Of a DNA stretch of 64,000 nucleotides, positions 12,516 through 31,718 are shown in pieces. The notes beneath the pieces are model-generated. The model searched no databases. It had not been told where the DNA came from and was given only the letters and a program-made list of their open reading frames with translations. Within the stretch, counting starts at the first letter, position 1. Every line of letters starts with the position of its first letter. Source of the DNA: Candidatus Rokuibacteriota bacterium (GTDB taxonomy: Bacteria; Methylomirabilota; Methylomirabilia; Rokubacteriales; CSP1-6). The position numbers and the translations under genes were made by a program. Location of the stretch: NCBI GenBank assembly GCA_003220535.1, contig QHSU01000087.1, forward strand, positions 3,273-67,272. Reading direction: 5' to 3'.

Positions 12516-13310
12516 TCAGGAGAGCCAGCGTTTGCGACGCTTGTAGTGTTTGACGTCCCGGTACGACCGGCGGGCGCCCACTTCGGTGAGGCCGAGGTAG
12601 AACTCCTTGATGTCCGCATTTTCCGTGAGCGCCGCCGCGGTGCCGTCGAGCACGATCCGTCCGTTCTCCATCACGTAGCCGTGCTCGGCGATGGTCAGAG
12701 CTAGCGCGGCGTTCTGCTCGACCAGCAGGACGGTCAACTTTTCTTGCCGGTTCAGCTGCTGCACGATCCCGAAGATCTCTTCGACCAGCATCGGCGCCAG
12801 TCCGAGCGACGGCTCGTCGAGCAGCATGACGTGCGGGTCCGCCATCAGCGCGCGACCGATCACGAGCATCTGCTGCTCGCCGCCGGAGAGATAGCCCGCC
12901 TGGACGGAGCGCCGCTCCTTGAGTCTGGGGAAGTACCCGTACACGCGCTCGATCCCGGCCGCCACGCGCTGCCGGTCCTTCTGGATGTGCGCCCCCGCGA
13001 TCAAGTTCTCTTCGGTGGTCAGGTGCTCGAAGACCCGCCGGCCCTCGAACACCTGCACGATGCCGCGCCGGACCACCGCGTGCGGCGGCAACCGATCGAT
13101 CCGCTCGGTCTTGAACTCGATGGAGCCCTTCGTCACGTCACCGCGCTCGGACCGCAACAGGCCCGAGACGGCCTTCAGCGTCGTCGTCTTGCCGGCACCG
13201 TTGGCGCCGAGCAACGTCGTGATCCCGCCCTCGCGGACGCTGAGCGACACGCCCTTGAGGACGAGGATCACGCCGTCGTAGATGACCTCGACGTTGTTGA
13301 GAGTCAGCAT
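12516..13310 (-). CDS. Liv-type ABC importer ATPase (LivF-like) with basic C-terminal tail, module A
   Basis: 264 aa. It has Walker A GANGAGKTT, signature LSGGEQQML and Walker B MLLDEPS. It ends SYRDVKHYKRRKRWLS. Confidence 0.9.
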   Translation of the reverse strand: MLTLNNVEVIYDGVILVLKGVSLSVREGGITTLLGANGAGKTTTLKAVSGLLRSERGDVTKGSIEFKTERIDRLPPHAVVRRGIVQVFEGRRVFEHLTTEENLIAGAHIQKDRQRVAAGIERVYGYFPRLKERRSVQAGYLSGGEQQMLVIGRALMADPHVMLLDEPSLGLAPMLVEEIFGIVQQLNRQEKLTVLLVEQNAALALTIAEHGYVMENGRIVLDGTAAALTENADIKEFYLGLTEVGARRSYRDVKHYKRRKRWLS

Positions 13311-13319
13311 GTGGGTCCG

Positions 13320-14573
13320 CTACTTCTTCGCGCCCGACTCCTTGATGTGCTTGGCCACCACATCCTGGTAGGCGGCGAACCAGTCGGTGACCTTCTCGAA
13401 CTTCCCGCCCTTCACCTGCCAGATCTGCACGAGCCCGCCCCCTTCGTGGTCGGTCGGGGTGACCTTGAGCGGCGGGACCAATCCGCCCAGGGTGAAGTTC
13501 GAGATCTTCTCGAAGCCCGCCTTCGTGTCGACACCGGTGATCTTGCCGTCCGGCTTGGCCTTCAGCGCGTTGCGGATGGCCTCGACGTGCAGGGCGGCGA
13601 CGAGCACGCCCCGGTTGTAGAAGACGGTCGAGGCCATTTCTTTGGGCGCCTCCTTGCCCTGCTTCTTGTACATCTCGCGAATCTCGTTCAGCACGGGATA
13701 GTCGGTGCCGACCCCGGCGAACTGCATCGCGTAGTAGCCCTCGGCGACGCCGAAGCCGCCGGCGCCATCGATGTTGGCCTCGGCCGCGCCCCACACGAAC
13801 GACACGACCTTGCGGAGCGGGTAGCCGACCCGCTTGAACTCCTTGATCGATACCGACGGCGCCCCGCCGAACAGGTGGGCGAGCACGAAATCCGCGCGGA
13901 AGCGCTGCGCGATATCCAGCACCTGGGCGCCCATCTCGACGCCGGGGGGCGGAACCGCGAAGGTCTTGAGCTGGAATCCTTCCTTCGTCGCGAGGTCTTC
14001 GATGACCTCGATCGGCTCGCGGCCGGCCGGGTTGTCGTAGAAGATGTAGGCGATCTTCTTGCCCTTGAGAGTGCCGCCGAGCTGCTTCTTCACGAAGTCC
14101 ACCGCGGCCGCGCCCTGCGACCAGTACGTGGCGGCGATCGGAAAGATGTAGGGGTAGCGGATGCCGTCGGCGGCCGCCGCGCTGCCGAAGCCGGGCGAGG
14201 TGCCGGGGATCCGATCCTCGGTGAGCTTCGCCGCGAGCGCGTAGATCTGCGGCGTGCCGTAGATGGCCATGGTCACGGCGCCGTCCTTCTTGTGCCGCTC
14301 GTAAGACTCGACGGCCGGCGGCACCTTGTACTCGTGGTCGATCTCGAGGGCCTTGATCTTGTGGCCCTCGACGCCGCCCTTGGAGTTCACGAGAGCGATG
14401 TAGTCGTGGAAGGCCGGGCAATAGACCGTGCCCACGATCTGGGTCGGTCCGGTACGGTCACACTGCACGCCAATCACGATTTCGCTCTTCGACTGAGCAT
14501 AAGACGGACTCGCCATCAGCAGGCTGCCCGCCGCCACGATCAACGCTATCGCGATGGCCAGAAACTGTCTCAT
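13320..14573 (-). CDS. Liv-type ABC substrate-binding protein, module A
   Basis: Trimmed from the 817-aa track ORF to ATG 14573 (MRQFLAIAIALIVAAGSLLMASPSYAQ signal peptide). 417 aa with a type-1 periplasmic binding fold. Paralogous to 20714-22027. Confidence 0.85.
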   Translation of the reverse strand: MRQFLAIAIALIVAAGSLLMASPSYAQSKSEIVIGVQCDRTGPTQIVGTVYCPAFHDYIALVNSKGGVEGHKIKALEIDHEYKVPPAVESYERHKKDGAVTMAIYGTPQIYALAAKLTEDRIPGTSPGFGSAAAADGIRYPYIFPIAATYWSQGAAAVDFVKKQLGGTLKGKKIAYIFYDNPAGREPIEVIEDLATKEGFQLKTFAVPPPGVEMGAQVLDIAQRFRADFVLAHLFGGAPSVSIKEFKRVGYPLRKVVSFVWGAAEANIDGAGGFGVAEGYYAMQFAGVGTDYPVLNEIREMYKKQGKEAPKEMASTVFYNRGVLVAALHVEAIRNALKAKPDGKITGVDTKAGFEKISNFTLGGLVPPLKVTPTDHEGGGLVQIWQVKGGKFEKVTDWFAAYQDVVAKHIKESGAKK

Positions 14574-14596
14574 GTGCACTCTCCTTGCTCGCGCAC

Positions 14597-15664
14597 TCAG
14601 TACGCGAACGGCCAGACTCTGAAATAGCTTCGGATGTTCCGCCAGAGACGGTTCAGCCCCTCGGGCTCCACGATCAGAAAGAAGATGATGAGGGCGCCAA
14701 ACATCATGAGGCGGAGGTTGGGAATGAGGTTGAGCACGGTCTGCTGAGTGAAGAAGACCCCGCCGAAGGCCTCCATGGCGTAGCGGATGACGATGGGCAG
14801 CAGGGTGACGAAAATGGCCCCGAAGATCGAGCCCAGCACGGAGCCGAGCCCGCCGATGATGATCATGGCCAGGTAGTCGATGGACACGCCGATCTGGAAC
14901 TGCTCGTAGTTGGCGATGCCCAGGAAGTACGTGTACAGCACCCCGGTGCCCCCGGCGTAGAACGACGAGATGGCGAAAGCCAGGAGCTTGTAGCGGAAGA
15001 TGTTGATGCCGATGATCTCGGCGGCGATGTCGTGGTCGCGGATCGCGATGAACGCGCGTCCCACCCGGGTGCGCATCAGGTTCATCGTCCCCACGATCGC
15101 CAGGACGACGAAGATGAGGAGGAAGTAGTACATGTGACGCTGGGTGTCGAGGACCATCGGGCCCAGGCGCGGCCGCGCCACCTCGATCGACGCCTGCACG
15201 CCGCCACTGATGAACGTCACATGGTTGATCGTCCATTCGATGATGAGCTGACCGGCCAGCGTGGCGATGGCGAGGTAGAGGCCCTTGATGCGCAGGGACG
15301 GGATGCCGACGATGGCGCCGATCAGCGCCGCCATGAGCCCGCCCGCGAGGAGATTCACGGGCCACGGCGAGCCCAGGCGGTTGGCGAGGTTCGCAGCCGT
15401 GTAGGCGCCGACCGACATGAAGGCTCCGTGGCCGATCGACACCTGCCCCGTATAGCCTACGAGGATGTTGAGGCCGAGGGCGCCGATGACGGCGATCCAC
15501 ACGAGGCTCGCGACCGACAGGAAGTACTCGTGAAGGGTGAGCGGGATGACGACGAGGAACAGCACTGCCAGCGCCGCCACCGTCCAGCGCGCGATCGGCA
15601 GCGGATAGAACGCCATGTCCGCCGCATACGTCGTCTTCAGCACCCCGCATTCTCGATGAATCAC
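14597..15664 (-). CDS. Liv-type ABC permease (LivM-like), module A
   Basis: Start set to GTG 15664 (VIHRECGVLKTTYAADMAFYP). Conservation with the paralog 22050-23126 (VIYREAGQFKETYASDQAIFP) begins there, and a GGAGA SD lies 5 nt upstream. Upstream track-ORF codons are translated repeat sequence. Confidence 0.8.
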   Translation of the reverse strand: MIHRECGVLKTTYAADMAFYPLPIARWTVAALAVLFLVVIPLTLHEYFLSVASLVWIAVIGALGLNILVGYTGQVSIGHGAFMSVGAYTAANLANRLGSPWPVNLLAGGLMAALIGAIVGIPSLRIKGLYLAIATLAGQLIIEWTINHVTFISGGVQASIEVARPRLGPMVLDTQRHMYYFLLIFVVLAIVGTMNLMRTRVGRAFIAIRDHDIAAEIIGINIFRYKLLAFAISSFYAGGTGVLYTYFLGIANYEQFQIGVSIDYLAMIIIGGLGSVLGSIFGAIFVTLLPIVIRYAMEAFGGVFFTQQTVLNLIPNLRLMMFGALIIFFLIVEPEGLNRLWRNIRSYFRVWPFAY

Positions 15665-15681
15665 ACCTGTCTCCACGCGTC

Positions 15682-15841
15682 GAGCCCGCAGGGGCGCTGC
15701 GGGGTGGGGGGCAGCGCGACCACGCCGCACGCGTGCGCAGATCCCGTTGCGGCTGGGCTCCATCCGGGCGCACTCGCTCCGCCGCTCGCTCGGAGGGAAC
15801 GGGTCCCGCTACCCCCCACCCCGCAGCGCCCCCACGGGCTC
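15682..15841. repeat. palindromic intercistronic element, copy 1 (core inverted relative to copies 2, 3, 5, 6)
   Basis: Arms at 15682-15721 and 15802-15841 are nearly perfectly complementary. The core carries the family blocks GACCCGTTCCC / CCGGATGGAGCCCAGCC / GCGCACGCGTGCGGCGTGGTC on the minus strand. Confidence 0.85.
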
Positions 15842-15904
15842 CACTCGTGCAACGCAGACTTACGACGTAGGACGGATGCTGTGACCGGTTCTAAGCGAGT
15901 CAAG

Positions 15905-16070
15905 GGAGGGCGGGGGGCAGAGCGGCGGGGCGTGGGGAGGGGTGCTGGGACCCGTTGCCTCCATGCACGCGGCGGACGCGATGCGCCCGGATGGAGCCCA
16001 GCCACAGCGGGTTCTGCGCACGCGTGCGGCGTGGTCCCCACACCCCGGCTCGGCGCGCACGCGGCCCCAC
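15905..16070. repeat. palindromic intercistronic element, copy 2 (arms partly eroded)
   Basis: The core at 15949-16035 has all three conserved blocks on the plus strand. The inner arm GGGGTGCTGGGACC pairs with GGTCCCCACACCCC, but the outer arms carry an insertion. Boundaries are approximate. Confidence 0.75.
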
Positions 16071-16114
16071 GCATGAGCGGTGATGCGGTCAGTTCCATGC
16101 ACGCGACGCGAGGG

Positions 16115-16278
16115 CTCGGGGCATGGGGGTGGCGCGGGGTGAGGGGTGCGGGGACCCGTTCCCTCCATGCGCTCGGCGGGCGTGCCGCGCCCGGATGGAG
16201 CCCAGCCGCAATGGGATCCGCGCACGCGTGCAGCGTGGTCCCCACACCCCTCACCCCGCGCCACCCCCGTGCCCCGAG
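16115..16278. repeat. palindromic intercistronic element, copy 3
   Basis: The 42-nt arms at 16115-16156 and 16237-16278 are complementary at 40/42 positions. The core has all three blocks on the plus strand. The element ends 14 nt from the livH-like stop. Confidence 0.9.
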
Positions 16279-16292
16279 TCCGGTGCGTGCGG

Positions 16293-17189
16293 TCATACGC
16301 GCTCGATGATGCGTTTACCGAAGATACCGTAGGGGCGAATCATGAGGGCGAGGATCATGAGGACGTAGGGCGCGAAGTCCTTGGTGCCGCCGCCGACATA
16401 GGGGTCGACGTAGCCGGCGGCGATGTTCTCGACGATACCGACGATGAGGCCGCCGATGATCGCGCCCGGAATGGAGTCGAGCCCACCCAGGATGACCACC
16501 GGGAACACCTTGAAGCCGACCAGCGCCAGGTTCACGTCGACGCCGAGCAGGTTGCCCCACAGGATGCCGCCCAGCGCCGACACGACGCCGGTCATCGCCC
16601 ACGCCACGCCGAAGTAACGCTCGACGTCGATGCCCATGGCCATGGCGACTTGCTGGTTGTCGGCCACCGCGCGCATGGCGATGCCCTTGCGCGACTTCAA
16701 GAAGAACCATCCAAAGCCCGCCAGGAAGGCCAGGCTCACCCCGGCGCCGAGGAGCTGGATGGGCGGGATGAAGAGCGGCCCCAGCATGAAGGGCTCGTCG
16801 CGGATGGGCAGCGGCAAGGGCTTGGTCCCGGAGAAGATGGTGAACGGCCCGACGCCGCGCAGGATCGACGCCAGCCCGATGGTCGCCATGACCACGGCGA
16901 TCACGGGCCGGCCGATGAGCCGGCGCAGCATGACGCGCTCGAGCACGAAGCCGAACGCGATCAGGCTCGCCAGCGCGAGCGTGACGGCGATCCACAGCGG
17001 CGCTCCCCAGACCATGAGGGCGCCCGCCGCCACGAAGCCCGCGATCATGACGAACTCGCCCTGGGCGAAGTTGATGGCATCGGTCGCCTTGTAGACGAGC
17101 ACGAAGCCGAGCGCGATCAGCGAATACATCAAGCCGATCAGCACGCCGTTCGACATCAGGAGGAAGAAGAAGCTGAGGTCCTCAGACAC
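16293..17189 (-). CDS. Liv-type ABC permease (LivH-like), module A
   Basis: 298 aa, multi-pass hydrophobic, with a LivH-like N-terminus (LIGLMYSLIALGFVLVYKATDAINFAQGEF). Confidence 0.9.
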   Translation of the reverse strand: MSEDLSFFFLLMSNGVLIGLMYSLIALGFVLVYKATDAINFAQGEFVMIAGFVAAGALMVWGAPLWIAVTLALASLIAFGFVLERVMLRRLIGRPVIAVVMATIGLASILRGVGPFTIFSGTKPLPLPIRDEPFMLGPLFIPPIQLLGAGVSLAFLAGFGWFFLKSRKGIAMRAVADNQQVAMAMGIDVERYFGVAWAMTGVVSALGGILWGNLLGVDVNLALVGFKVFPVVILGGLDSIPGAIIGGLIVGIVENIAAGYVDPYVGGGTKDFAPYVLMILALMIRPYGIFGKRIIERV

Positions 17190-19101
17190 GCGCGGTCATC
17201 TCCGGCCCGACGTCCTCGACGCGCACGCGCGACTTGAGGGTGGCCGTGCGGCCGTCCTCGTAGGTGATGCTCGCCTCCAGCTCCACCGTGTGACCGCCCG
17301 AGTAGAACGCGTCGATGACCGCAGCGTACTTCTCGGACACGAACCGCCGCCGCACCTTGCGCGTTCGCGTCATCTCGGCGTCGTCGGCCTCCAGGTCCTT
17401 GGTGAGAAGCAGAAACCGGCGGATCTGCGTGGCCGCCGGCAGCGTCTCGTTGCCCTTGCGGATCTCCTCGCGGATCAGCCCGCAGACCTCGGGCTTCTGG
17501 CTCAGGTCCATATAGCTCGTGTACGGAATTCCGCGCCGCTCCGCCCAGTTCCCCACCGTGTTGAGGTCGATGGCGACCATCGCGGTGACGAAGTCGCGCT
17601 CGTGGCCGAAGGCCACCGCCTCGCGGACGTAGGGGCTGAACTTCAGCTTGTTCTCGATGAACTGCGGCGCGAACGGCGTGCCGTCCCGGAGCGCGCCGAC
17701 GTCCTTGGCGCGGTCGATGATGACGAGGTGGCCGCGCGGGTCCATGAAGCCCGCGTCGCCGGTGCGGAACCAGCCGTCGGGATCGATGACCTCGCGCGTC
17801 GCCTCCTCGTTCTTGAGGTAGCCCTTGAAGATGACGGGACCCCGTACCAGCACCTCGCCGCGATCGGCGATCTTGACTTCGATGCCCGGGCACGGGCGCC
17901 CGGCGGTCGTCGGATTGGCCTCGGCGCTCGGCTGCAGCGACACCAGGCCCGTCGTCTCCGTGGAGCCATACACCTGCTTGAGGTTGACGCCGATCGACCG
18001 GAAGAATCGAAACGTGTCCGGGCCGAGCGGCGCGCCGCCCGTCAGCGCCCAGCGGGCGCGGCGCAGGCCGAGCTGATCGCGGATCGGCGTGTAGACGAGG
18101 ACGTTGCCGAGCATGCGCGCCAGCCGCAGGCCGAGCGGGATTGGCTTACCGTCGGCGCGCAGGATCTCGGCGCGCTCGGCGACGGCGCGGAAGCGCTCGA
18201 AGACCCATCGCTTGAGGGCCGGCGCGTCGGCAGCCTTCACCTGCACCGCCGTCAGCATGTTCTCCCAGATGCGCGGCGGCGCCAGCACGGTCGTCGGCCC
18301 CAGCTCGCGCAGGTCGCGCTGGACCGTCTCCGGGCTCTCCGGGCAGTTGGCGCAGAACCCCACCACGAGGCTGAGGAACAGCGTATAGGCGGCGTCGCCC
18401 GCCCACGCCATCGGCAGATACGCGAGGGCGTCGTCCTCCGGGCGGATGTCGTCGGCCTTGCGGAACGCCTCCGCGATGCCGATCGCGTTGGCGTGGGTGA
18501 GCATGACGCCCTTCGGGTTGCCGGTGGTGCCCGAGGTGTAGCAGATGATGGCGACGTCCTCGGGCTTCCCCTTCTCGATCTCGGCCTCGAAGTACGTGGA
18601 GTGCCGGGTCGCGAACGAACGCCCGAGCTCCTGGACGTCCTGGTAAGAGCGGAGCCAGTCGTGCTTGTAGCGCAGCAGGCCGCGCGGGTCGTCGTAGACG
18701 ACGAGGCGCAGCGCCGGGAGCTGGTCGCGGAGGCCCAGCACCTTGTCCACCTGCTCCTGATCCTCGGCGACGATCACCGCGCACTCGGCATGATTCCAGA
18801 CGAAGGCGAGCTCCTTGGCGATCGAGTCCTGGTAGACCGGCACCGGCACCCCGCCCAGGCACTGCGCGGCAACCTGGGCCCAGTAGAGCCGCGGGCGGTT
18901 GTCACCGATGACCGACAGCCGCTCGCCGCGCTTGAAGCCGAGTGCAGCGAGCCCCAGGGCGAACTCGCGGACCTGGTCGTGGTACTGGCCCCACGTCCAG
19001 GTCTGCCAGATGCCGCGGTCCTTCTCACGAATCGCCGGCCGGTCGCGCAGGTCGCGGGCGTTCCTCTGCAGCAGTCTCGCGAGCGTCGTCGCCTCAGCCA
19101 C
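17182..19101 (-). CDS. long-chain-type AMP-dependent acyl-CoA synthetase embedded in ABC module A
   Basis: It has ICYTSGTTGNPKGVMLTH and GWFRTGDAG motifs. The start is trimmed to GTG 19101 (VAEATTLARLLQRNARDL), which aligns with the paralog's N-terminus and overlaps the livG-like stop by 8 nt. About 639 aa. Confidence 0.85.
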   Translation of the reverse strand: MAEATTLARLLQRNARDLRDRPAIREKDRGIWQTWTWGQYHDQVREFALGLAALGFKRGERLSVIGDNRPRLYWAQVAAQCLGGVPVPVYQDSIAKELAFVWNHAECAVIVAEDQEQVDKVLGLRDQLPALRLVVYDDPRGLLRYKHDWLRSYQDVQELGRSFATRHSTYFEAEIEKGKPEDVAIICYTSGTTGNPKGVMLTHANAIGIAEAFRKADDIRPEDDALAYLPMAWAGDAAYTLFLSLVVGFCANCPESPETVQRDLRELGPTTVLAPPRIWENMLTAVQVKAADAPALKRWVFERFRAVAERAEILRADGKPIPLGLRLARMLGNVLVYTPIRDQLGLRRARWALTGGAPLGPDTFRFFRSIGVNLKQVYGSTETTGLVSLQPSAEANPTTAGRPCPGIEVKIADRGEVLVRGPVIFKGYLKNEEATREVIDPDGWFRTGDAGFMDPRGHLVIIDRAKDVGALRDGTPFAPQFIENKLKFSPYVREAVAFGHERDFVTAMVAIDLNTVGNWAERRGIPYTSYMDLSQKPEVCGLIREEIRKGNETLPAATQIRRFLLLTKDLEADDAEMTRTRKVRRRFVSEKYAAVIDAFYSGGHTVELEASITYEDGRTATLKSRVRVEDVGPEMTARV

Positions 19102-19897
19102 GGGATCCTCCAGCGCCGATGGTCTTGGTCTCGCCGAGATATGCCTTGATGACGCGCGGGTTCGCCCGCACATCGTCGGGCGCGCCCTCGGCGATCTTCT
19201 GGCCCATGTCGAGCACCGCGATACGGTCGGAGATGTCCATGACCACGCCCATGTCGTGCTCGATCAGGATCACGGTGACGCCCCACTCCTCGTTGACGTC
19301 GAGGATGAAGCGCGCCATGTCCTCTTTTTCCTCGTGGTTGCACCCGCCCATCGGCTCGTCGAGGAGCAGGACCTTCGGGTCGAGCGCCAGCGCCCGTCCG
19401 AGCTCGACGCGCTTCTGCAGGCCGTAAGCCAGGGACCCGGTCGGGCGCCGGCGCAGGTCCTGGATGCTCAGGAAGTCGATGATGTCCTCGACGCGCTTGC
19501 GGTGCGCAACCTCCTCCTTCTGCGCGAACCCCCAGTAGGCGAAGGCCCCCAGCACGCCGGTCTTCATGTGCACGTGCCGGCCGAGCATGAGGTTGTCGAG
19601 CACGGTCATGCCCCGGAACAAGGCGATGTTCTGGAACGTGCGCGCGATGCCGAGCTCGGCGACCCGGCTCGGCGCCAGGTCGGTGATGTCGCGCCCCTCG
19701 AGCGTGATGCGGCCGCTGTCCGGATGGTAGAAGCCGCTGATCATGTTGAGCACGGTCGTCTTGCCGGCGCCGTTGGGGCCGATGACCGACAGGATCTCGC
19801 CCTTCTGGGCTTCCAGGGACACCCGCGTCACGGCCTGCACGCCGCCGAACGCCTTGGACACTTCGCGGATCTCGAGCAGCGCGCTCACGACAGCCAC
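19094..19897 (-). CDS. Liv-type ABC importer ATPase (LivG-like), module A
   Basis: 267 aa. It has GPNGAGKTT, LAYGLQKRVELGRAL and LLLDEPMGG. An alternative GTG at 19888 would give a GTGA overlap with the upstream stop. Confidence 0.9.
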   Translation of the reverse strand: MAVVSALLEIREVSKAFGGVQAVTRVSLEAQKGEILSVIGPNGAGKTTVLNMISGFYHPDSGRITLEGRDITDLAPSRVAELGIARTFQNIALFRGMTVLDNLMLGRHVHMKTGVLGAFAYWGFAQKEEVAHRKRVEDIIDFLSIQDLRRRPTGSLAYGLQKRVELGRALALDPKVLLLDEPMGGCNHEEKEDMARFILDVNEEWGVTVILIEHDMGVVMDISDRIAVLDMGQKIAEGAPDDVRANPRVIKAYLGETKTIGAGGSRG

Positions 19898-20703
19898 CGC
19901 TTCCGCCGTCGGTAGTGCTTGACGTCGCGATAGCTCTTCCGCTGGCCCACGCCGGTCAGACCCAGATAGAACTCCTTGATATCCTCGTTCTCGCTGATCG
20001 TCCTGGCATCGCCGTCCAGCACGATCCGGCCATTCTCCATAACATAGCCGTGCTGGGCAACCTGTAATGCCATGGTCGCGTTTTGCTCGGCGAGGAGCAC
20101 CGCCACCCGCTCCTCGCGGTTGAGCCGCCCGACGATGTCGAAGATCTCCTTCACGAGCATGGGCGCCAGCCCCATGGACGGCTCGTCGAGGAGCATCAGC
20201 GTCGGTCGGGCCATGAGCGCGCGGCCGATGGCCACCATCTGCTGCTCGCCGCCCGAGATGTACCCCGCCTTGAAGCCGCGGCGCTCGGTCAATCGCGGAA
20301 AGTAGTGGTAGACGACGTCGAGATCCTTCTTCGTCGACTGCCCGTTGCGCCGTGTGTAGGCCCCGGTCAATAGATTTTCCTCGACCGTCAGGTGCTCGAA
20401 CACGTGCCGCCCCTCCATCACCTGGACGATCCCGTGCTTGACGACCTCGGAGGGGTTCTGCCGGTGGATCGCCCGCCCCTGGAACTCGATCGCGCCCTTC
20501 GTCACCTCGCCGCGCTCGGTCCGGAGGAGCCCCGAGATCGCCTTGAGGGTCGTGCTCTTGCCGGCGCCGTTGGCCCCGAGGAGGGCGACGATGCCCCCCT
20601 CGGGGACCGTGAGCGACACGCCCTTCAACACGAGGATCACGTGGTCGTAGATGACCTCGATGTTGCTGACCGCCAGGAGCGGTCGCGGTGTGGCGTCGGC
20701 CAC
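19885..20703 (-). CDS. Liv-type ABC importer ATPase (LivF-like) with basic C-terminal tail, module B
   Basis: 272 aa. It has GANGAGKST and ISGGEQQMV. It ends SYRDVKHYRRRKRWLS, like its module A paralog. Confidence 0.9.
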   Translation of the reverse strand: MADATPRPLLAVSNIEVIYDHVILVLKGVSLTVPEGGIVALLGANGAGKSTTLKAISGLLRTERGEVTKGAIEFQGRAIHRQNPSEVVKHGIVQVMEGRHVFEHLTVEENLLTGAYTRRNGQSTKKDLDVVYHYFPRLTERRGFKAGYISGGEQQMVAIGRALMARPTLMLLDEPSMGLAPMLVKEIFDIVGRLNREERVAVLLAEQNATMALQVAQHGYVMENGRIVLDGDARTISENEDIKEFYLGLTGVGQRKSYRDVKHYRRRKRWLS

Positions 20704-20713
20704 CGGCGCGCCC

Positions 20714-22027
20714 TCACTTCTCCTTCGAGCAGTCGCGCATCGTGTAGCTGAGCTTCTTGCCCTCCTCGACGGCCGCCGCCTCGATCTTCGGCCGGACGAC
20801 GTCGCGCATCGGCGCGATCCAGTCGGAGACGACGTTCCACTTCTTGCCGTCCCACTGCTGGATGAGCACGGGGCCGCTCCCCTCGTGATCCTCGCACGTC
20901 ACCTTCACCGCGTGCGTGAAGCCCTTCATGCCGACCTGGTCGAGGCGCTGGTCGGTGAGGTTGAGGTTCTCGAAGCCCCAGCGGACCTGTTCGCCGGTGA
21001 GCGGTTTGTTGCCGAACTTCGCCATCGCGGTGCGGATGGCCTCGGCCGAGAACATCGCGTTGACGACGCCGCGGTTGTAGAGCGGCGCACCCATCTCTTC
21101 TTTCTTTCCGGTGCCCTTTCCCTTGTCGTAGACGTGCTTGAGGATCTCCGCGTGCGCCTTGAAGTTGGTACCTGGCGCGTGGAACGTCGCGCCCTTGTAG
21201 CCTTTCGCCCCCTCGCCGGCCGGGACGACGTCGGAGTCGTTGGCCGACCACCAGTTGCCGATGAGACGGTCCATCTTGAAGCCGACGGACGCCGCTTCCT
21301 TGATCGCGACCTGGTTCATGACGCCCCAGCCCGACATGAAGATCCAGTCCGGATTCAGCCGTCGCACCTGGAGCCACGTCGCCTTCTGCTCCTGCCCGGG
21401 ATGGTCCACCGCGAGCAGTGTCAGCTCGAACTGGTACTTCCTCGCGAGCTCCTCGAGCGTCGGGTTCGCCTCCTTCCCGTAGGCGCTGTTGTGGAAGATG
21501 TGGGCGATCTTCTTGCCCTTCAGCTTCTCGACGCCGCCCTCCTGCTGACCGATGTAGCGAATGACGGCCGACGCCTGGCTCCAGTAGTTCGTCGGGAAGT
21601 TGAACACCCACGGGAACCACCGGCCGTCGGAGGCGGCGCTCATGCCATACCCCATCGAGAAGACCACCACCTTGTCGACAGAAGCCTTGGGGATCAGCGA
21701 GTAGGTGATCGCGGTGCTGTAGGGATTCACGAGCACGGGACTCTTCCCTTTGAGGCGTTCGTAGCACTCGACGCCCTGCTTGTTGTCGTACTGCGTCTCG
21801 CACTCTTCCCACGCGACCTTGACGCCGTTGATCCCGCCGTCGCGCTCGTTCAAGAGCGTGAAGTAGTCGACGAAGCCGTCGGCGATCGGAATACCGCTCG
21901 GCGCATACGGACCGGTCCGGTAGACGAGCAGTGGGATGAACATCTCCTTCGGTTGGGCGACGACCAGCATCGGCGCCGTGATCACCAGCGCCGCCAGCAT
22001 CGCGATCGAGACGATCCGTACCCTCAT
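20714..22027 (-). CDS. Liv-type ABC substrate-binding protein, module B
   Basis: 437 aa. Signal peptide MRVRIVSIAMLAALVITAPMLVVAQ, followed by a type-1 periplasmic binding fold. Confidence 0.85.
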   Translation of the reverse strand: MRVRIVSIAMLAALVITAPMLVVAQPKEMFIPLLVYRTGPYAPSGIPIADGFVDYFTLLNERDGGINGVKVAWEECETQYDNKQGVECYERLKGKSPVLVNPYSTAITYSLIPKASVDKVVVFSMGYGMSAASDGRWFPWVFNFPTNYWSQASAVIRYIGQQEGGVEKLKGKKIAHIFHNSAYGKEANPTLEELARKYQFELTLLAVDHPGQEQKATWLQVRRLNPDWIFMSGWGVMNQVAIKEAASVGFKMDRLIGNWWSANDSDVVPAGEGAKGYKGATFHAPGTNFKAHAEILKHVYDKGKGTGKKEEMGAPLYNRGVVNAMFSAEAIRTAMAKFGNKPLTGEQVRWGFENLNLTDQRLDQVGMKGFTHAVKVTCEDHEGSGPVLIQQWDGKKWNVVSDWIAPMRDVVRPKIEAAAVEEGKKLSYTMRDCSKEK

Positions 22028-22049
22028 GACGCTCTCCTTTCACTCACGC

Positions 22050-23126
22050 TCAATGGGGGAATGGCCAGAGCCGCAGCTTCTCCTTCGTGATCTGCCAGAG
22101 CCGGGCCAGGCCGCGCGGCTCGACGATCAGGAAGAAGATGATCAGTCCGCCGAAGACCATCAGCTCGATCTGCTTCTGGAGCGCGACGGGCAGTCGGAGT
22201 CCGACCGCATGCGGCGCGTTACTCAAGACGATCGGGACCAGCACGATGAACGCGGCGCCGAGGAAGGACCCCACGATGCTGCCCAGGCCGCCGATGATCA
22301 CCATGAACAGGACGAGGAACGAGATGCTGATGTCGAACGCCAGCGTCTCGGCGCTGCCGAGATAGAGGAACACCAGCTCGGCTCCGGCCACCCCGCAGTA
22401 GAACGAGCTGATGGCGAACGCGAGCAGCTTCGTCCGCAACGGACGCACGCCGATGATCTCGGCGGCGATGTCGCGGTCGCGGATCGCCATCCAGGACCGG
22501 CCAACGCGACCGCGCACCAGGTTCTTGGCGACGAGGGCGAACACGGCGACCAGGCCCAGCGCGGTGAGGTACCGCGCCGACGGGGTCGAGTTCGGGCCGG
22601 TGATGAGGGCGCCGAAGAGCGTCCGGTCCGGGGCGGTGATGGTGCCCGACGAAGCGTAGTTGGTGAACCACGCGACCTTGTTGAAGAGCCAGAGGAGGAA
22701 GAACTGCGACGCGAGGGTGGCGACGGCGAGGTAGAAGCCCTTGATCCGGAGGCTCGGGATGCCGAACAGCAGTCCGACGGCTGCCGCGACGACGCCCGAG
22801 AGCAGGAAGACGACGATGACGTTGAGCTGCGGGAACGCCGTCGCCAGCTTGAACGCCGCGTAGGCGCCGACGGCCATGAAGCCGCCGGTGCCGAGCGAGA
22901 GCTGCCCGGCGTACCCGGTCAGCAGATTGAGGCCGATGGCCGCGAGCGCGTAGATCAGGAACGGGATCAGGACCGCCTGGAGCCAGTACTCGCTGGCGAC
23001 GAGAGGCGGCACGACGAAGGCCGCCACCGCTGCCGCCAGGACGACGACGCGATCCTGAACGATCGGGAAGATCGCCTGGTCGCTGGCGTACGTCTCTTTG
23101 AACTGTCCGGCTTCGCGATAAATCAC
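22050..23126 (-). CDS. Liv-type ABC permease (LivM-like), module B
   Basis: The start is set to GTG 23126 by conservation with 14597-15664. The track ORF upstream of it is translated repeat. About 358 aa. Confidence 0.8.
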   Translation of the reverse strand: MIYREAGQFKETYASDQAIFPIVQDRVVVLAAAVAAFVVPPLVASEYWLQAVLIPFLIYALAAIGLNLLTGYAGQLSLGTGGFMAVGAYAAFKLATAFPQLNVIVVFLLSGVVAAAVGLLFGIPSLRIKGFYLAVATLASQFFLLWLFNKVAWFTNYASSGTITAPDRTLFGALITGPNSTPSARYLTALGLVAVFALVAKNLVRGRVGRSWMAIRDRDIAAEIIGVRPLRTKLLAFAISSFYCGVAGAELVFLYLGSAETLAFDISISFLVLFMVIIGGLGSIVGSFLGAAFIVLVPIVLSNAPHAVGLRLPVALQKQIELMVFGGLIIFFLIVEPRGLARLWQITKEKLRLWPFPH

Positions 23127-23131
23127 TTGGC

Positions 23132-23310
23132 GGTGCCCCACAGGGCCAGGCGGGCGGGGTGCGGGCGGGGTCGCTCGGACCACGCCGCACGCGCGCGCTG
23201 CTCCGGGGCGGCTGGGCTCCATCCGGCGGCGCCACGCCCGTCGCCGCGTTGAGGGAACGGGTCCGTTCGACCCCGCCCGCACGCCACCCGCCCGGCCCAG
23301 TGGGGTGTCC
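23132..23310. repeat. palindromic intercistronic element, copy 4 (core inverted; same subfamily as copy 6)
   Basis: The arms at 23132-23181 and 23260-23310 are largely complementary. The core blocks read on the minus strand (variant GCGCGCGCGTGCGGCGTGGTC). The left end lies 5 nt from the livM-like start codon. Confidence 0.85.
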
Positions 23311-23346
23311 TTGGTCTGCGGCATGGATTCACGATTTGCATAGGCG

Positions 23347-24285
23347 TCACACGCGCTCGATGATTTTTTCGCCGAAGAGGCCTTGGGGTCTCACCAGCAG
23401 GAAGGCCAACGCGAGGACGTAAGCGAACCAGTTCTCGATGGCGCCGCCGACGAGCGGCCCCCAGTAGACTTCGCCCAGCTTCTCGCCGATACCGATGATG
23501 AGCCCGCCCACGATGGCGCCCGGCACGGACTCGAAGCCGCCCAGGATGAGCACGGGCAAGGCCTTGAGGGCGATCAGCGACAGGCTGAACTGGACGCCGC
23601 TCTTGGCGCCCCACATCAAGCCGGCCACGATGGCGACCACTCCCGCGATCGACCACACGACGACCCAGATCGTCTTGAGCGGGATGCCGATGGAGAGCGC
23701 CGCCTCGTGGTCGTCGGCGACCGCGCGCAGAGCCCGCCCGATCCGGGTCTTCTGGAAGAACAGCGCCAGCAACGTCACCAGGACCGCGGCCGTCACCGCC
23801 GCCGTCAGCTCGAGCTCGTTGATCTGCACGCCGCGCACGATGAACGATCGATCGGGAATCCCGATGTCGAGCTTCTTGACGTTGGCGCCCCACAGCATCT
23901 CGCCGAAGCCTTCGAGGAAAAAGTTCAGGCCGATCGTGGCCATGAACAGGATGATGTGCTCCTGGTTGACCAGCGGGCGCAGCACGAGCCGCTCGATCGC
24001 GAAGGCCAGCGCCACCATGACCACGGTCGTCACGGCGAGGGCGAGGACGACGGGCACGCGGCGCTCGAGCAGCCCGACCAAGGTGAGGGCCGCGAACAGC
24101 ACCATCACGCCCTGGGCGAAGTTGAACACGCCCGAGGCCTTGAAGATGAGGACGAACCCGAGCGCCACCAGCGAGTACATGAGCCCCGCAAAGAGCCCGC
24201 CGATCAGCACCTCCACCAGAAACGCCGGCGATCCCGCCATGTCCTTGAACGGCGCGACGAACACGGCTTGCAATACGTCCAGCAT
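23347..24285 (-). CDS. Liv-type ABC permease (LivH-like), module B
   Basis: 312 aa, multi-pass, with LFAGLMYSLVALGFVLIFKASGVFNFAQG. Confidence 0.9.
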   Translation of the reverse strand: MLDVLQAVFVAPFKDMAGSPAFLVEVLIGGLFAGLMYSLVALGFVLIFKASGVFNFAQGVMVLFAALTLVGLLERRVPVVLALAVTTVVMVALAFAIERLVLRPLVNQEHIILFMATIGLNFFLEGFGEMLWGANVKKLDIGIPDRSFIVRGVQINELELTAAVTAAVLVTLLALFFQKTRIGRALRAVADDHEAALSIGIPLKTIWVVVWSIAGVVAIVAGLMWGAKSGVQFSLSLIALKALPVLILGGFESVPGAIVGGLIIGIGEKLGEVYWGPLVGGAIENWFAYVLALAFLLVRPQGLFGEKIIERV

Positions 24286-24304
24286 CAGACTTGACCGCTT
24301 TCGA

Positions 24305-24367
24305 GCGCCGGCTTTGCCGGCGCAATCCTCTTCTGGGGGAGGCTCGGAGGGGGCCGTCGAGGCCCCC
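24305..24367 (-). other. two perfect GC hairpins in the livG-livH spacer of module B
   Basis: The hairpins are GCGCCGGC-TTT-GCCGGCGC (24305-24323) and GGGGGCC-GTCGA-GGCCCCC (24349-24367). No U-tract follows on the transcribed strand. Confidence 0.5.
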
Positions 24368-24375
24368 TTCGAGGG

Positions 24376-25164
24376 TCACTCATGCGCGACGCCCAGGTAC
24401 GCGTCCAGGACGGCCCGGTCCATCCGAACTTCGGCGGGCCGGCCGTCGGCGATCTTGCGCCCGTAGTCGAGAACCACCACCCGGTCGGAGATGTCCATGA
24501 CCACGCCCATGTCGTGCTCGATCAGCGCGATGGTCGTGCCGAACTCCTGGTTGACGTCGAGGATGAAGCGGCACATGTCCTCCTTCTCCTCGACGTTCAT
24601 TCCCGCCATCGGCTCGTCGAGCAGCAGGAGCGTGGGCTCGGCGGCGAGCGCCCGGGCGAGCTCGACGCGCTTCTGCAACCCGTAGGGCAGACGGCCGGCC
24701 TGCGTCTTGCGGATCGCCTGGATCTCGAGGAAGTCGATGATCCGCTCCACGAAGGCCCGGTGCTCGAGCTCCTGGCGCTTGGCCGGCCCCCAGTAGAGCG
24801 CTTCCAGCAGGAAGCTGCCGCGCATCTTCAAGAGGCGTCCGGTCATGATGTTGTCGAGCACGCTCATGCCGCGGAACAGGGCGACGTTCTGGAACGTGCG
24901 GGCGATCCCGAGCGCGGCGACGTCGGGGGGCGAGAGATGCGTCCGGTCCTTGCCGGCGAACGCGATCCGGCCCTGGTAGGGATGGTAGAAACCGCTGATC
25001 GCGTTGAGCAGCGTCGTCTTGCCGGCGCCGTTCGGGCCGATGATGGCCACGATCTCTCCGCGCGCGACACGGAGGCTCACCTGATTGACCGCGATGAGGG
25101 CGCCGAACCGCACGCTCACGCCGTCGACCTCGAGCAGCGGCCCCGAGGGCCCCGGCCGGCTCAC
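24376..25164 (-). CDS. Liv-type ABC importer ATPase (LivG-like), module B
   Basis: 262 aa. It has GPNGAGKTT, LPYGLQKRVELARAL and LLLDEPMAG. The GTG start overlaps the ligase TGA stop (GTGA). Confidence 0.9.
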   Translation of the reverse strand: MSRPGPSGPLLEVDGVSVRFGALIAVNQVSLRVARGEIVAIIGPNGAGKTTLLNAISGFYHPYQGRIAFAGKDRTHLSPPDVAALGIARTFQNVALFRGMSVLDNIMTGRLLKMRGSFLLEALYWGPAKRQELEHRAFVERIIDFLEIQAIRKTQAGRLPYGLQKRVELARALAAEPTLLLLDEPMAGMNVEEKEDMCRFILDVNQEFGTTIALIEHDMGVVMDISDRVVVLDYGRKIADGRPAEVRMDRAVLDAYLGVAHE

Positions 25165-29813: not shown

Positions 29814-30791
29814 CTAGAGCGCTTTTCGCAGCAGGTTGCCCAGCTCGCCGATGACACCGCGACGGAAGGTCAGGACGCAGACGACGAAGATCGCCCCCTG
29901 AACGACGGTGACCCACGCGCCGAGCTGCGCCAGATAGTTCTCGAGCGTCACCACGATGAACGCGCCGACCACCGGCCCGAACACCGTGCCGAGGCCGCCC
30001 AGCAGCGTCATGAGCACCACCTCGCCCGACATCGTCCAATGGACGTCGGTGAGGGACGCGAGCTGGAAGACGAGTGCCTTCGTCGCCCCGGCGAGGCCTG
30101 CGAACGTGGCCGAGAGCACGAACGCGAGCAGCTTGTACTGCTCGGCCCGGTAGCCGAGCGAGATCGCCCGGGGCTCGTTCTCCCGGATGGCCTTCAGGAC
30201 CTGGCCGAACGGCGAGTGGATCGCGCGGTAGATCAGGAGGAACCCGACGAGAAAGATCGCCAGCACGACGAAGTAGAGCGTCAGCGTCTCTCTGAGGTCG
30301 AGCACCCCCAGGAGCGTGCCCCGCGGCACCGACTGGATGCCGTCCTCGCCGCCGGTGAAAGAGGCCTGCAGGCTGAAGAAGTAGACCATCTGCGCGAAGG
30401 CGAGCGTGATGTTCGCGAAGTAGATGCCCTTGCTCCGGATCGCGAGCGCGCCGATGACGACTCCGAGCGCGGCCGCGACCGCGGTCCCGAAGCTGATCGC
30501 CAGCTCCGGCGGAAACCCCCAGATCTTCGCGGAGTGCGCCGCGCCATAGCCGGCCGCGCCCAGAAAGACGGCGTGGCCGAACGAGAGGAGCCCGACGTAG
30601 CCGATGAGGAGGTTGAACGCGCAGGCGAACAAGGCGAAGCAGAGCGCCTTCATGAGGAAGACCGGGTACACGAAGAACGGCGCCGCCACGAGCGCGGCCG
30701 TCATCACCACGAAGGCGACGAGCTGGTGGATCGACACCCCCGTCATCGCGGGGACAGCCGAGCCCACGTACTCGTTCGCCGTCGCCGTCAC
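29814..30791 (-). CDS. Liv-type ABC permease (LivM-like), module C
   Basis: Trimmed from the 557-aa track ORF. GTG 30791 overlaps the livH-like TGA (GTGA). The alternative start is ATG 30746 (MTGVSIHQ...). Confidence 0.8.
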   Translation of the reverse strand: MTATANEYVGSAVPAMTGVSIHQLVAFVVMTAALVAAPFFVYPVFLMKALCFALFACAFNLLIGYVGLLSFGHAVFLGAAGYGAAHSAKIWGFPPELAISFGTAVAAALGVVIGALAIRSKGIYFANITLAFAQMVYFFSLQASFTGGEDGIQSVPRGTLLGVLDLRETLTLYFVVLAIFLVGFLLIYRAIHSPFGQVLKAIRENEPRAISLGYRAEQYKLLAFVLSATFAGLAGATKALVFQLASLTDVHWTMSGEVVLMTLLGGLGTVFGPVVGAFIVVTLENYLAQLGAWVTVVQGAIFVVCVLTFRRGVIGELGNLLRKAL

Positions 30792-31672
30792 GTGGTCCGC
30801 CCGAAGAGGCCCGCGGGCCTCACCAGCAGTACGAGCGCCATGATGACGAAGATCACCGTGTTGGACGCCTCGGGATAGAAGACCTTGGTGAAGCCCTCGA
30901 CTACGCCGAGGGCGAAGCCCGTGACGATCGAGCCCATGATCGAGCCGAGGCCGCCGATCACGACCACCGCGAAGACGACGATGATGAGGTCGGCGCCCAT
31001 GAGCGGGTTCACCTGGTAGATCGGCGCCGCCAGCACGCCCGCCAGCGCCGCGAGGCCGACGCCGAACCCGTAGGTCAGCGTGATCATCCGGGGCACGTTG
31101 ATCCCGAACGCCTGGACGAGCGCCGGGTTCTCGGTCGCGGCGCGCAGGTACGACCCCAGGCGCGTCCGCTCGATCACGTACCAGGTCGTGAGGCAAACCA
31201 CGAGCGAGAAGACGATGACCCAGGCGCGGTAGTTCGGCAGGAACATGAAGCCGAGATTCCGGCCGCCGGCGAGCTCTCGCGGCATCGCATAGGGCAGCCC
31301 GGAAGAGCCGTACTCGTGGCGGAACAGACCCTGGATGATCAGCGCGAAGCCGAACGTCAGCAGGAGGCCGTAGAGGTGATCGAGCTGGTAGAGGCGCTTG
31401 AGCATCGTGCGCTCGAGCACGATGCCGGTGATCCCCACGACGATCGGGGCCAGGAGGAGCGCCCACCAGTAGCCGAGCCCCGCCCACTGCAAGAGGAAGT
31501 ACGCCACGAACGCGCCCATCATGTACTGCGCGCCGTGCGTGAAGTTGATGATGTTGAGCAGTCCGAAGATGACCGAGAGCCCCAGACTCAACAGGGCGTA
31601 GAACGCGCCGTTGATCAGTCCGATCAGCAGCTGCCCGAACAACGCCTGTGTCGGCACCCCGAAGATCGTCAC
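30788..31672 (-). CDS. Liv-type ABC permease (LivH-like), module C
   Basis: 294 aa with a GTG start. It has LLIGLINGAFYALLSLGLSVIFGLLNIINFTHGA. Confidence 0.9.
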   Translation of the reverse strand: MTIFGVPTQALFGQLLIGLINGAFYALLSLGLSVIFGLLNIINFTHGAQYMMGAFVAYFLLQWAGLGYWWALLLAPIVVGITGIVLERTMLKRLYQLDHLYGLLLTFGFALIIQGLFRHEYGSSGLPYAMPRELAGGRNLGFMFLPNYRAWVIVFSLVVCLTTWYVIERTRLGSYLRAATENPALVQAFGINVPRMITLTYGFGVGLAALAGVLAAPIYQVNPLMGADLIIVVFAVVVIGGLGSIMGSIVTGFALGVVEGFTKVFYPEASNTVIFVIMALVLLVRPAGLFGRTT

Positions 31673-31718
31673 GATGGCCTACGCTGCGACGGCCGTGGCT
31701 GGATCAAGGTGGGGAGGG

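Follow-up and report, generated by a model that had tools for sequence, protein, structure and literature searches.

Among the closest described counterparts of the repeat reported here are the REP/BIME and REPIN sequences, high-copy, G+C-rich extragenic palindromes which occur in either orientation, in clusters and as inverted doublets, often at the 3' ends of genes or between the cistrons of operons. In the classical REP cases, malE-malF and hisJ-hisQ, the palindrome follows a binding-protein gene. REPs are palindromes of 20–40 nt with a conserved stem and a 5' GTAG-type tetranucleotide, and REPINs combine conserved arms with a spacer that varies. The hairpin of REPINs is kept by compensatory changes (PMC3116915). 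Bacterial MITEs (as defined in PMC3184786), such as Correia, ERIC, RUP, Nezha and Chunjie, are co-transcribed with neighboring genes as long hairpins, show presence/absence polymorphism, insert repeatedly into the same short spacers, and have family-wide terminal inverted repeats and target-site duplications. ERIC, which occurs in Enterobacteria and Vibrio, is conserved over its whole 127 bp.

Quasipalindromes are reportedly corrected by template switching, a process attributed to work by Ripley in 1982 and by the Lovett laboratory. Templated correction has so far been documented mainly in Proteobacteria and yeast, in short inverted repeats whose spacers are short and whose arms measure from a few to about 20 bp. 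Template switching keeps inverted repeats of Proteobacteria perfect (PMC5941160). It makes the two arms of an inverted repeat alike and inverts the spacer (PMC8604942), and it is able to expand arms (PMC13100816). Invertons are phase-variable invertible promoters, short segments found in both orientations between conserved inverted repeats that a nearby site-specific recombinase recognises, and in intrinsic terminators a U-tract follows a short GC-rich stem.

The repeat analyzed in this study shares with REP/BIME and REPIN sequences their copy number, composition and arrangement, and its hairpin is likewise preserved by compensatory changes. Its architecture is the reverse of that of REPINs, since an asymmetric center of 86–88 nt is conserved, whereas the arms of 30–70 nt are free to vary. 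Conservation of the center only, as opposed to the whole length, also sets it apart from ERIC as described.

Six copies, designated c1 to c6, were located in the window, which is the whole 64-kb stretch of Rokubacteria DNA that was analyzed. Three of them, the trio, lie between a livH-type and a livM-type permease gene. The features are as follows.

14597–15664, minus strand, livM-type permease gene downstream of the trio (Pfam BPD_transp_2, E = 6.7e-42)
15674–15849, minus strand, copy c1, with arms 15674–15717 and 15806–15849 and core 15718–15805, in minus-strand reading
15865–16250, no strand assigned, tandem duplication with a 204-nt period, units 15865–16046 and 16069–16250, 77% identity
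about 15930–16072, plus strand, copy c2, decayed, core 15949–16036
16112–16281, plus strand, copy c3, with arms 16112–16152 and 16241–16281 and core 16153–16240
16293–17189, minus strand, livH-type permease gene upstream of the trio (Pfam BPD_transp_2, E = 6e-30)
23136–23305, minus strand, copy c4, core 23178–23263, arms 87% complementary, between a second livH (23347–24375) and livM (22050–23126)
31732–31903, plus strand, copy c5, core 31774–31861
57980–58186, plus strand, copy c6, with arms of 61 and 60 nt that are 93% complementary and core 58041–58126

These six copies stand at essentially the positions given in the original prediction, and all of them share three exact core blocks, for which about 0.5 matches are expected by chance. 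The block CCRGATGGAGCCCAG occurs six times without mismatch (0.54 expected; none of 100 shuffles reached six), and GCACGCGTGCNGCGTGGTC occurs six times with at most one mismatch (0.58 expected). The core is 86–88 nt long in the window copies. Five of the six form GC-rich hairpins of 41–61 bp; their arms, of 41–61 nt, are 84–93% complementary. The sixth, c2, is decayed and lacks the 90–100% pairing that had been claimed for each copy, retaining only 10 bp (15939–15948/16037–16046) and 8 bp (15930–15937/16065–16072) of arm pairing with an 18-nt bulge between them. Folding energies were -133 to -179 kcal/mol, with z = -7 to -12 against shuffles, apart from c2 (z = -2.4); the values were -141.7 kcal/mol and z = -7.9 for c1, whose arms are 88% complementary, and -153.6 kcal/mol and z = -11.5 for c3, whose arms are 93% complementary. 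Copy c5 sits 4 nt past the stop codon of a livK-type binding-protein gene (31907–33169), upstream of livH (30788–31678), and c6 occupies the entire spacer between livK (58189–60012) and livH (57099–57983).

The predicted 628-nt gap between livH and livM is exact, extending from the livH stop at 16293 to the livM GTG start at 15664. This start codon (15664–15662) is preceded by GGAG 6 nt upstream, and the N-terminus MIHRECGVLKT is kept in orthologs. The trio had been described as three tandem copies; c2 and c3 are indeed related by the 204-nt tandem duplication, which copied the c3 unit and about 45 nt upstream of it and so gave rise to c2, but the core of c1 is inverted relative to those of c2 and c3, so that the three are not arranged head to tail. 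The core-like fragment noticed near 16092 lies upstream of c3, within the duplicated unit; it is also present in the orthologous locus L065 and had no match in the profile search.

A scan for the exact pattern yielded at least 114 additional loci, every one of which belongs to one of 28 Rokubacteria/Methylomirabilota assemblies, and a profile search of 884 kb gave 139 matches, nearly all of full length. Each copy is non-coding, 110–210 bp in total, and consists of an asymmetric core of 86–88 bp flanked by inverted arms of 30–70 bp. Nothing in the 64-kb window reached the Rfam gathering score, which agrees with the repeat having been called an unassigned family, and an Rfam search by E-value returned only generic GC-hairpin miRNA-precursor matches (40 bits, against thresholds of 83–168 bits). 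No match was found in the plasmid search. One match in a viral contig (L195) was rejected as a chance match because it has neither the left block nor the arms. The literature search returned nothing on Rokubacteria repeats, and the core 13-mers led to unrelated papers alone (on S. aureus, a bovine herpesvirus, prostate cancer and ghrelin). Judged from these searches, the hairpin repeat is evidently a previously undescribed one, found only in Rokubacteria (phylum Methylomirabilota).

The copies are placed mostly where they would be transcribed. Sixty-six lie between tandem genes, 20 between convergent and 8 between divergent genes, and 4 inside ORFs; the median distance to the upstream stop codon is 30 nt. 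They occur singly, in clusters and in inverted doublets, in either orientation. In the window, each of the four livH genes, and likewise each of the four liv operons, has its copy, and the claim that copies flank livH and nothing else holds for the window only; elsewhere, only 8 of 107 copies adjoin a LivH-like gene and more than 200 Pfam families are represented among the flanking genes, which rules out a liv-specific association.

Arm sequences differ widely between copies, with a median score of 11 out of 40 for non-orthologous arms and with ragged outer ends, and yet they remain complementary within a copy, as originally noted. Arm cells were paired in 84% of cases as compared with 67% in shuffles; 442 cells were double changes, as compared with 160 +/- 9 in shuffles, and none of 500 shuffles reached 442. 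The covariation score of the arms was 0.406, against 0.144 when shuffled and 0.08–0.17 in slid-partner controls. Among the paired positions of ortholog arms, 725 were conserved, 226 had double changes and 174 had single changes, where arms evolving independently at about 25% divergence would be expected to show roughly 18 single changes for each complementary double change. Hypermutability of the arms was rejected, since their identity between orthologs (70–88%) is about equal to that at 4-fold sites of the flanking genes (68–82%). Thus the arms change at about the synonymous, or neutral, rate but in concert, and what changes in one arm, by substitution or in length, changes in the other as well. 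Length changes are symmetrical too: both arms of L040 are about 12 nt shorter than those of its counterpart c6, which fits templated correction, and the arms of L103 have grown outward. The arms probably copy-correct each other and thereby keep their complementarity. These results bear out the earlier suggestion of selection or templated correction for the hairpin.

On balance, the repeat is probably a non-coding, REP/BIME/MITE-like DNA element whose arms are homogenised, and whose core is flipped, by template switching, and whose core serves as a recognition site for a protein. The elements would have entered intergenic spacers through insertion and local duplication, and they now lie mostly just past stop codons or within operons. 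Templated correction within each element, by quasipalindrome template switching during replication or by arm-to-arm gene conversion, would keep the arms matched, and the same templated process would invert the core between homologous arms at orthologous loci. Template switching predicts that the arms become homogenised (through double changes and indels that are symmetrical), that they lengthen and that the spacer inverts, and all three behaviors were seen; the repeat differs from the described cases in having arms of 40–60 bp, a spacer of 86 bp and a whole family of copies, and template switching leaves the conserved core unexplained. Selection on hairpin stability, as RNA or as DNA, could also yield compensatory substitutions, and templated correction by itself does not explain why the 5' arm is persistently rich in G on both strands.

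This latter feature is one of several in favor of an alternative, namely that the RNA hairpin is selected as a REP-like cis-acting mRNA element (a barrier to 3'-exonucleases, a site for RNase III or a means of decoupling translation) which sets the relative expression of neighboring cistrons, the arms being kept complementary by selection for RNA stability. The 5' arm is G-rich and the 3' arm C-rich whichever strand is read, so that a copy in either orientation forms a hairpin of the same kind, and the RNA hairpins have extreme predicted stability; the positions within operons and shortly after stop codons, rarely between divergent genes, and the location of c5 and c6 after binding-protein genes, as in the classical REP cases, also agree with this alternative. 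G.U mismatches slightly exceed A.C mismatches on the mRNA strand (92:71), but the excess is not significant (p about 0.1), and by core strand the ratio of G.T to A.C is 141:131. Moreover, a symmetrical 12-nt change in arm length is hard to obtain by selection of point mutations, the 56 invariant core positions and the tolerated inversion of the core are left unexplained, and the element is missing from most orthologous liv operons. There are no terminator-like sites and no U-tract in 15500–16450, and the sequence following the 3' arms is G+C-rich, in contrast to that of intrinsic terminators. We consider it unlikely that the RNA hairpin is the selected function, though a REP-like role as mRNA stabiliser or decoupler, one of the original suggestions, is conceivable. 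For the repeat as a templated DNA element, any effect on mRNA processing or on the uncoupling of livH from livM would be a by-product.

The three core blocks, comprising 56 positions and including GATGGAGCCCAG and the palindrome GCACGCGTGC, are under purifying selection at each locus. The 56 conserved columns, of which 27 were fixed by the search pattern itself and 29 are unbiased, were 95–100% identical in orthologs (paralog baseline 0.95), and the 30 variable columns were 40–87% identical (paralog baseline 0.51). In L128, the palindrome GCACGCGTGC is altered symmetrically to GCGCGCGCGC.

A conserved "loop" on a variable, covarying stem resembles many RNA families, and the core blocks do not vary among at least 28 species, so that the core could be taken for a non-coding RNA with a structure of its own, be it a ribozyme, a riboswitch-like element or an RNA that binds protein, atop a long variable stem. 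However, in addition to the lack of an Rfam family match, mutual information within the core was weak and its best pairs were not consistently Watson-Crick, covariation being confined to the arms, and RNAalifold on 113 cores found almost no consensus structure on either strand. The core has no strand preference with respect to transcription (39 opposite and 27 in the same direction), it is inverted between homologous arms in the ortholog pairs L013/L056, L024/L102 and further pairs, and no promoter-like site was found in it with the promoter consensus. A structured-RNA role, which had been among the original suggestions, was not upheld by these results and appears quite improbable.

Because 56 positions are selected in the core without internal pairing or strand preference, we infer that the core is a putative sequence-specific recognition site for a trans-acting protein that reads DNA. 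Such a protein could be a DNA-binding factor of the host, or else the enzyme by which the family is mobilised or maintained. A more specific and rather speculative version is that the 56 positions are the docking site of a dedicated Rokubacteria protein, in a partnership like that of REP and RAYT but with the opposite architecture. If so, the protein would read a large asymmetric "loop" while the long arms would be sequence-free and self-correcting, and each of hundreds of copies would be individually maintained for a cellular benefit, which might lie in organising topology or the nucleoid at cruciform-prone sites or in RNA processing guided by the hairpin. In that case the core, by flipping slowly, would alter the polarity of this function from one locus to the next.

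Comparison of about 60 orthologous livH-livM junctions showed that in most of them the two genes are 0–10 nt apart or overlap as ATGA, and from this spacing the livH-livM trio is best read as an insertion into an ancestrally abutting junction. Most of these sites are empty; those filled are in the window, L065, L105 and L128, the last of which holds a core of the hairpin repeat. The ortholog L065 has counterparts of c1 and c3 but not of c2, that is, a single unit of the duplication. Unrelated palindromes occupy the junction in L190, L126, L121/L135 and L137. Orthologous copies of c5 were found in L058 and L015, and copies of the hairpin repeat persist over the long term by vertical descent at orthologous loci. 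In the window, insertions followed by tandem and inverted duplication would have turned the abutting junction into the 628-nt spacer, which, when transcribed, would form two or three very stable hairpins.

The size of the elements, their non-coding nature, intergenic dispersal, insertion polymorphism, folding into long hairpins, probable co-transcription with neighboring genes and repeated insertion into short spacers are those of a MITE, the innermost arm bases (GGGGTCGA...) are semi-conserved, and the arms of some paralogs are recognisably related, indicating that arm and core were once copied together. These features invite the alternatives that the repeat is an ordinary MITE whose arms are decayed terminal repeats, or that a small core inserts into pre-existing hairpins such as host terminators or REPs. 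The terminal sequences, however, are unconserved, with no conserved termini and no position-specific signal in the 15 nt outside the arms, and there was no target-site duplication of at least 5 nt above chance (the longest direct repeat at the boundaries averaged 5.12 nt, compared with 5.20 nt in mismatched controls, in a test which does not reach duplications of 2–4 nt). Decay of independent terminal repeats would break the complementarity that has in fact been kept. In 884 kb, about 1 long "empty" hairpin was counted, as compared with 101 that hold a core, and hence pre-existing hairpin targets are not evident. Apart from local duplicates, there were no pairs of near-identical arms between non-orthologous copies and hence no sign of recent transposition, and no parent insertion sequence with matching ends was found within 1.2 Mb of sequence. 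Both alternatives are very improbable, in keeping with the original view, which set the repeat apart from simple MITEs whose terminal repeats are fixed.

Among 190 flanking genes, no transposase or recombinase family recurs. Unlike REPs and REPINs, the repeat lacks the GTAG motif, since just 4 of 105 left flanks contain GTAG, and none of the genes seen beside the copies encodes a RAYT. Doublets beside a RAYT-like gene were ruled out, as the doublet of L029 lies between rex and mfd and that of L082 adjoins a luciferase-like monooxygenase. A composite transposon was also ruled out, since ordinary genes (encoding an amidohydrolase, a molybdopterin oxidoreductase, a nickel-insertion protein, a hydrolase and TenA) lie between the paired copies of L034, L008 and L072. 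No partner protein was found among the genes flanking the copies.

At least 3–4 independent inversions of the core occurred among about 12 ortholog groups, and the asymmetric junction beside the core travels with it on inversion. An inverton, in which a site-specific recombinase flips the core between the inverted arms and thus toggles expression of the neighboring genes, would produce both orientations between homologous arms at orthologous loci, but is hardly credible, as flips were seen only between genomes with flanks diverged by 10–15%, a slow evolutionary rate rather than phase variation, the arms are not conserved and so cannot be the recognition site of a recombinase, the neighboring genes examined are metabolic or repair genes with no recurring recombinase, the core has no promoter-like sequence, and template switching predicts the same inversions with no enzyme needed (PMC8604942). 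Template switching would account for the two orientations of the core at orthologous loci.

A name and a model for this repeat would help the annotation of the genomes of Rokubacteria, an abundant uncultured soil lineage, which it litters. With more than 100 paralogous and many orthologous copies, the family provides comparative evidence for templated correction shaping long inverted repeats in bacteria. A dispersed sequence of 56 positions, invariant across at least 28 species and bearing no RNA signature, points to a protein that recognises DNA. In the window, the elements appear to have broken an ancestrally abutting livH-livM junction. The repeat is currently translated into spurious ORFs.

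Six copies of the hairpin repeat in the window (c1 to c6) were found to share exact core blocks, as had been described. CCRGATGGAGCCCAG has six exact occurrences where 0.54 are expected, and none of 100 shuffles reached six; GCACGCGTGCNGCGTGGTC occurs six times at one mismatch or fewer, against 0.58 expected. Three copies lie in the gap between livH and livM.

Features of the livH-livM gap and positions of the element copies
14597-15664, minus strand: livM-type permease gene (Pfam BPD_transp_2), downstream of the gap, GTG start at 15664
15665-16292: livH-livM gap, 628 nt, between two minus-strand genes
within 15665-16292: three element copies (c1, c2 and c3)
16293-17189, minus strand: livH-type permease gene (Pfam BPD_transp_2), upstream of the gap
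23136-23305: further copy (c4)
31732-31903: further copy (c5)
57980-58186: further copy (c6)

The original description of 90-100% arm pairing within each copy was largely borne out for five copies, whose arms of 41-61 nt are 84-93% complementary and whose predicted folds reach -133 to -179 kcal/mol (z = -7 to -12), but not for the middle copy, c2, which is decayed and whose remaining pairing is 10 + 8 bp, interrupted by an 18-nt bulge (z = -2.4). Likewise, the gap does hold three copies, but they are not a head-to-tail array: c2 and c3 form a 204-nt tandem duplication with 77% identity, and the core of c1 is inverted relative to both. The earlier description of the element was largely right.

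An exact-pattern scan for the core, with one genome per species, yielded at least 114 stretches, and the matches listed all came from 28 Rokubacteria/Rokuibacteriota/Methylomirabilota MAG assemblies, including one mislabelled Binatia and one labelled 'uncultured bacterium'. The 884 kb of retrieved sequence contained 122 cores by pattern and 139 by profile, nearly all full length, with cores of 86-88 nt and arms of 30-70 nt in most cases (median 42 nt). Copies are intergenic and typically start about 30 nt past a stop codon; 66 lie between tandem genes, 20 between convergent and 8 between divergent genes, and 4 apparently within ORFs. Very few copies lack arms; one of these (L008:1925-2027) has a full-length core and essentially no complementarity past the innermost 8 nt. 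A canonical G-quadruplex motif (four runs, G3 or longer) was present in 41 of 113 5' arms and in none of the 3' arms of the same 113 copies (loci L001-L114 and the window). Because of the palindromic symmetry, a G-rich 5' arm is present on both DNA strands.

All four livH genes of the four liv operons in the window adjoin a copy, c1 to c4 between livH and livM and c5 and c6 between the binding-protein gene and livH; the chance of this is about 2e-4 by a hypergeometric estimate with about 55 window spacers. The proposal that copies flank a livH-type gene and nothing else holds in the window but fails outside it, where only 8 of 107 copies have a LivH-like neighbour and the 190 flanking genes represent more than 200 Pfam families. 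BPD_transp_2 is the commonest flanking family, with 13 genes, of which the window contributes six. The link with liv genes is a local feature, and liv-specificity is not supported.

The stretch 12516-25137 comprises two back-to-back liv-type operons, and an AMP-binding (acyl-CoA synthetase-like) gene at 17182-19173, in the first of them, overlaps the start of livH with its 3' end. Upstream of c6, the binding-protein gene (58189-60012) has an open frame of 607 aa, with a TAT signal at residues 191-209 and a Peripla_BP_6 domain from residue 220, so that its true start is probably about 190 codons into the frame.

A metagenome scan with the LivH protein as query gave 80 related loci; in most of them the interval from the livH stop to the livM start (MIHRECGVLKT...) is 0-10 nt, or the two overlap (ATGA). 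In element-free relatives (L129:1420-1430; L116, L118, L159 and L184) the two overlap or are 4 nt apart, suggesting translational coupling, which may have been broken in the window by insertion; in the window, livM carries a GGAG of its own, 6 nt upstream of the GTG. The comparison of orthologous operons thus revealed presence and absence, most junctions being without the element. Among the metagenome loci only L128 has the window-type core at this junction, and L065 and L105, from the genome scan, also carry it there. The metagenome locus with the closest LivH (L190, 92% identical to that of the window) has a 271-nt insert at the junction (L190:402-674) with arms of about 65 nt that enclose a core of about 76 nt, unrelated to the window-type core and not found elsewhere in the sequence data examined. 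Other palindrome families occupy the junction in L126, L121/L135 and L137, and therefore the junction accepts palindromic insertions repeatedly. L065 has counterparts of c1 and c3 and lacks c2, as would be expected if c2 arose later by tandem duplication; the trio goes back to an insertion followed by local amplification. No target-site duplication above chance was detected around the copies, and no motif was found in the flanks outside the arms.

Conservation reaches 85% or more in 56 core columns, and 30 columns are variable. Between orthologs, conserved columns are 95-100% identical and variable columns 40-87% (paralog baseline, 51%). The search pattern used fixed 27 of the 56 conserved columns; the other 29 include GACCCGTTCCC and the GCCCG, CCGC and AGCG flanks. 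In L128 the 10-bp core palindrome GCACGCGTGC is replaced by GCGCGCGCGC, a symmetrical change. The earlier leaning towards a structured RNA was not supported, as no consistent covariation was found inside the core and its orientation to flanking genes is 39:27 antisense:sense (p about 0.17). Together with the constraint and the absence of promoter-like or terminator-like sites in the element, these results suggest that the core is a sequence-specific site recognised on DNA. The element points to a putative recognition protein, and no recurring candidate partner gene was found among flanking or neighbouring genes.

The arms had been described as kept complementary within each copy, and this was upheld. 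Over the 27 arm pairs nearest the core in a 105-copy alignment, 84% of cells formed standard pairs (67% in shuffles), 442 cells showed double changes (160 +/- 9) and the covariation score was 0.406 (0.144); none of 500 shuffles reached the observed values. When partners were shifted by 1-3 columns as a control, the score was 0.08-0.17. Comparison of orthologous copies gave 725 unchanged arm pairs, 226 that had changed on both sides and still paired, and 174 that had changed on one side; if the arms evolved independently at the divergence seen (about 25%), roughly one complementary double change would be expected for every 18 single ones. Lengths change symmetrically as well: in c6 each arm exceeds its counterpart in the L040 ortholog by about 12 nt, and the L103 palindrome reaches further outward than its orthologs. 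G-richness of the 5' arm is greatest beside the core and has faded by about 40 nt, which fits an ancestral G-rich arm with later outward growth.

Hypermutability of the arms was ruled out, since the identity of window arms to those in L065, L058 and L040 (about 84-88%, 69% and 70%) is comparable to that at 4-fold sites of flanking genes (73-79%, 75-82% and 68-72%). Arm mismatches carried no strand signature, with G.T to A.C ratios of 141:131 by core strand and 92:71 by mRNA strand (p about 0.1).

Where the flanks of orthologous loci are 84-90% identical, a reverse-complemented core was seen between homologous arms that had stayed in place, directly in L013/L056 and L024/L102 and also in L059/L102, L013/L023 and L071/L112. 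About a dozen ortholog groups thus account for at least 3-4 independent inversions. The asymmetric core-adjacent junction (e.g. GAAGG at one end and CTCTC at the other) travels with the core, which places the exchange inside the arms. Template switching between the arms of inverted repeats has been reported to homogenise arms and invert the spacer (PMC8604942), to maintain perfect inverted repeats across Proteobacteria (PMC5941160) and to lengthen arms (PMC13100816). The same process would account for arm homogenisation and core flips here, and templated correction appears to explain the arm and core dynamics well. The element offers a clean case, from nature, of a palindrome evolving in concert.

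The element does not qualify as an inverton or, having no terminator-like sites, as an intrinsic terminator. By lifestyle, the closest kinds are REP/BIME/REPIN and bacterial MITEs such as ERIC and Correia (PMC3184786, PMC3116915). However, the conserved stem and GTAG motif of the former are absent, the conservation layout of REPINs is reversed (centre conserved, arms free), neither the conserved terminal repeats nor the target-site duplication of MITEs was detected, and there is no ERIC-type whole-length consensus. The proposal that the repeat matches no known family was sustained in Rfam, plasmid sequences and the searched literature; a single viral match was a chance match. The family is real and, against the searched literature, previously undescribed, and it belongs to the known class of interspersed intergenic palindromes; present evidence does not set it apart as a system of a new kind.

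Other families, in which long G-rich arms surround different cores, are also present at the Rokubacteria loci, and the window-type element is one member of this broader local repertoire. A different intergenic palindrome lies at 47596-47730 in the window, with arms of type GATCAAAACGACCCAGATGC...GCAGATGGGTCGTTTTCATC at 47600-47626 and 47699-47725 (89% complementary); its relatives are in L191, L132, L011, L121 and L135, at the livH-livM junction in the last two. A second family of like architecture (L028:3948-4066, L049:1-143, L108:1179-1304 and L088:4655-4718) has G-rich arms and a conserved core of about 65 nt, ...GGAGTGGGACCCC.TCGTC..CGCAGCTCGAAGAGCTGCGAATCG..CGGGTGACG, an imperfect palindrome centred on GAA. 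Hairpins built from CCCTCTCCC...GGGAGAGGG / GGGTGAGGG (L126:3388-3572 and L051:677-807) are another repeat, which occupies the livH-livM junction in one lineage.

Adjacent copies also form inverted doublets (L029:5655-6011, L065:3278-3618, L082:7476-7864, L105:4506-4856 and window 15674-16281), at independent loci that include rex-mfd, a luciferase-like gene and livH-livM, and the paired inverted copies make a higher-order palindrome. The GACCCGTT ends face each other in four of five doublets outside the window and in c1/c3, the exception being L043 (+,+). Facing ends are 127-175 nt apart (141, 127, 175 and 138 nt in L029, L065, L082 and L105). In L016, a 95%-identical ortholog of L029, one doublet member has decayed to a fragment.
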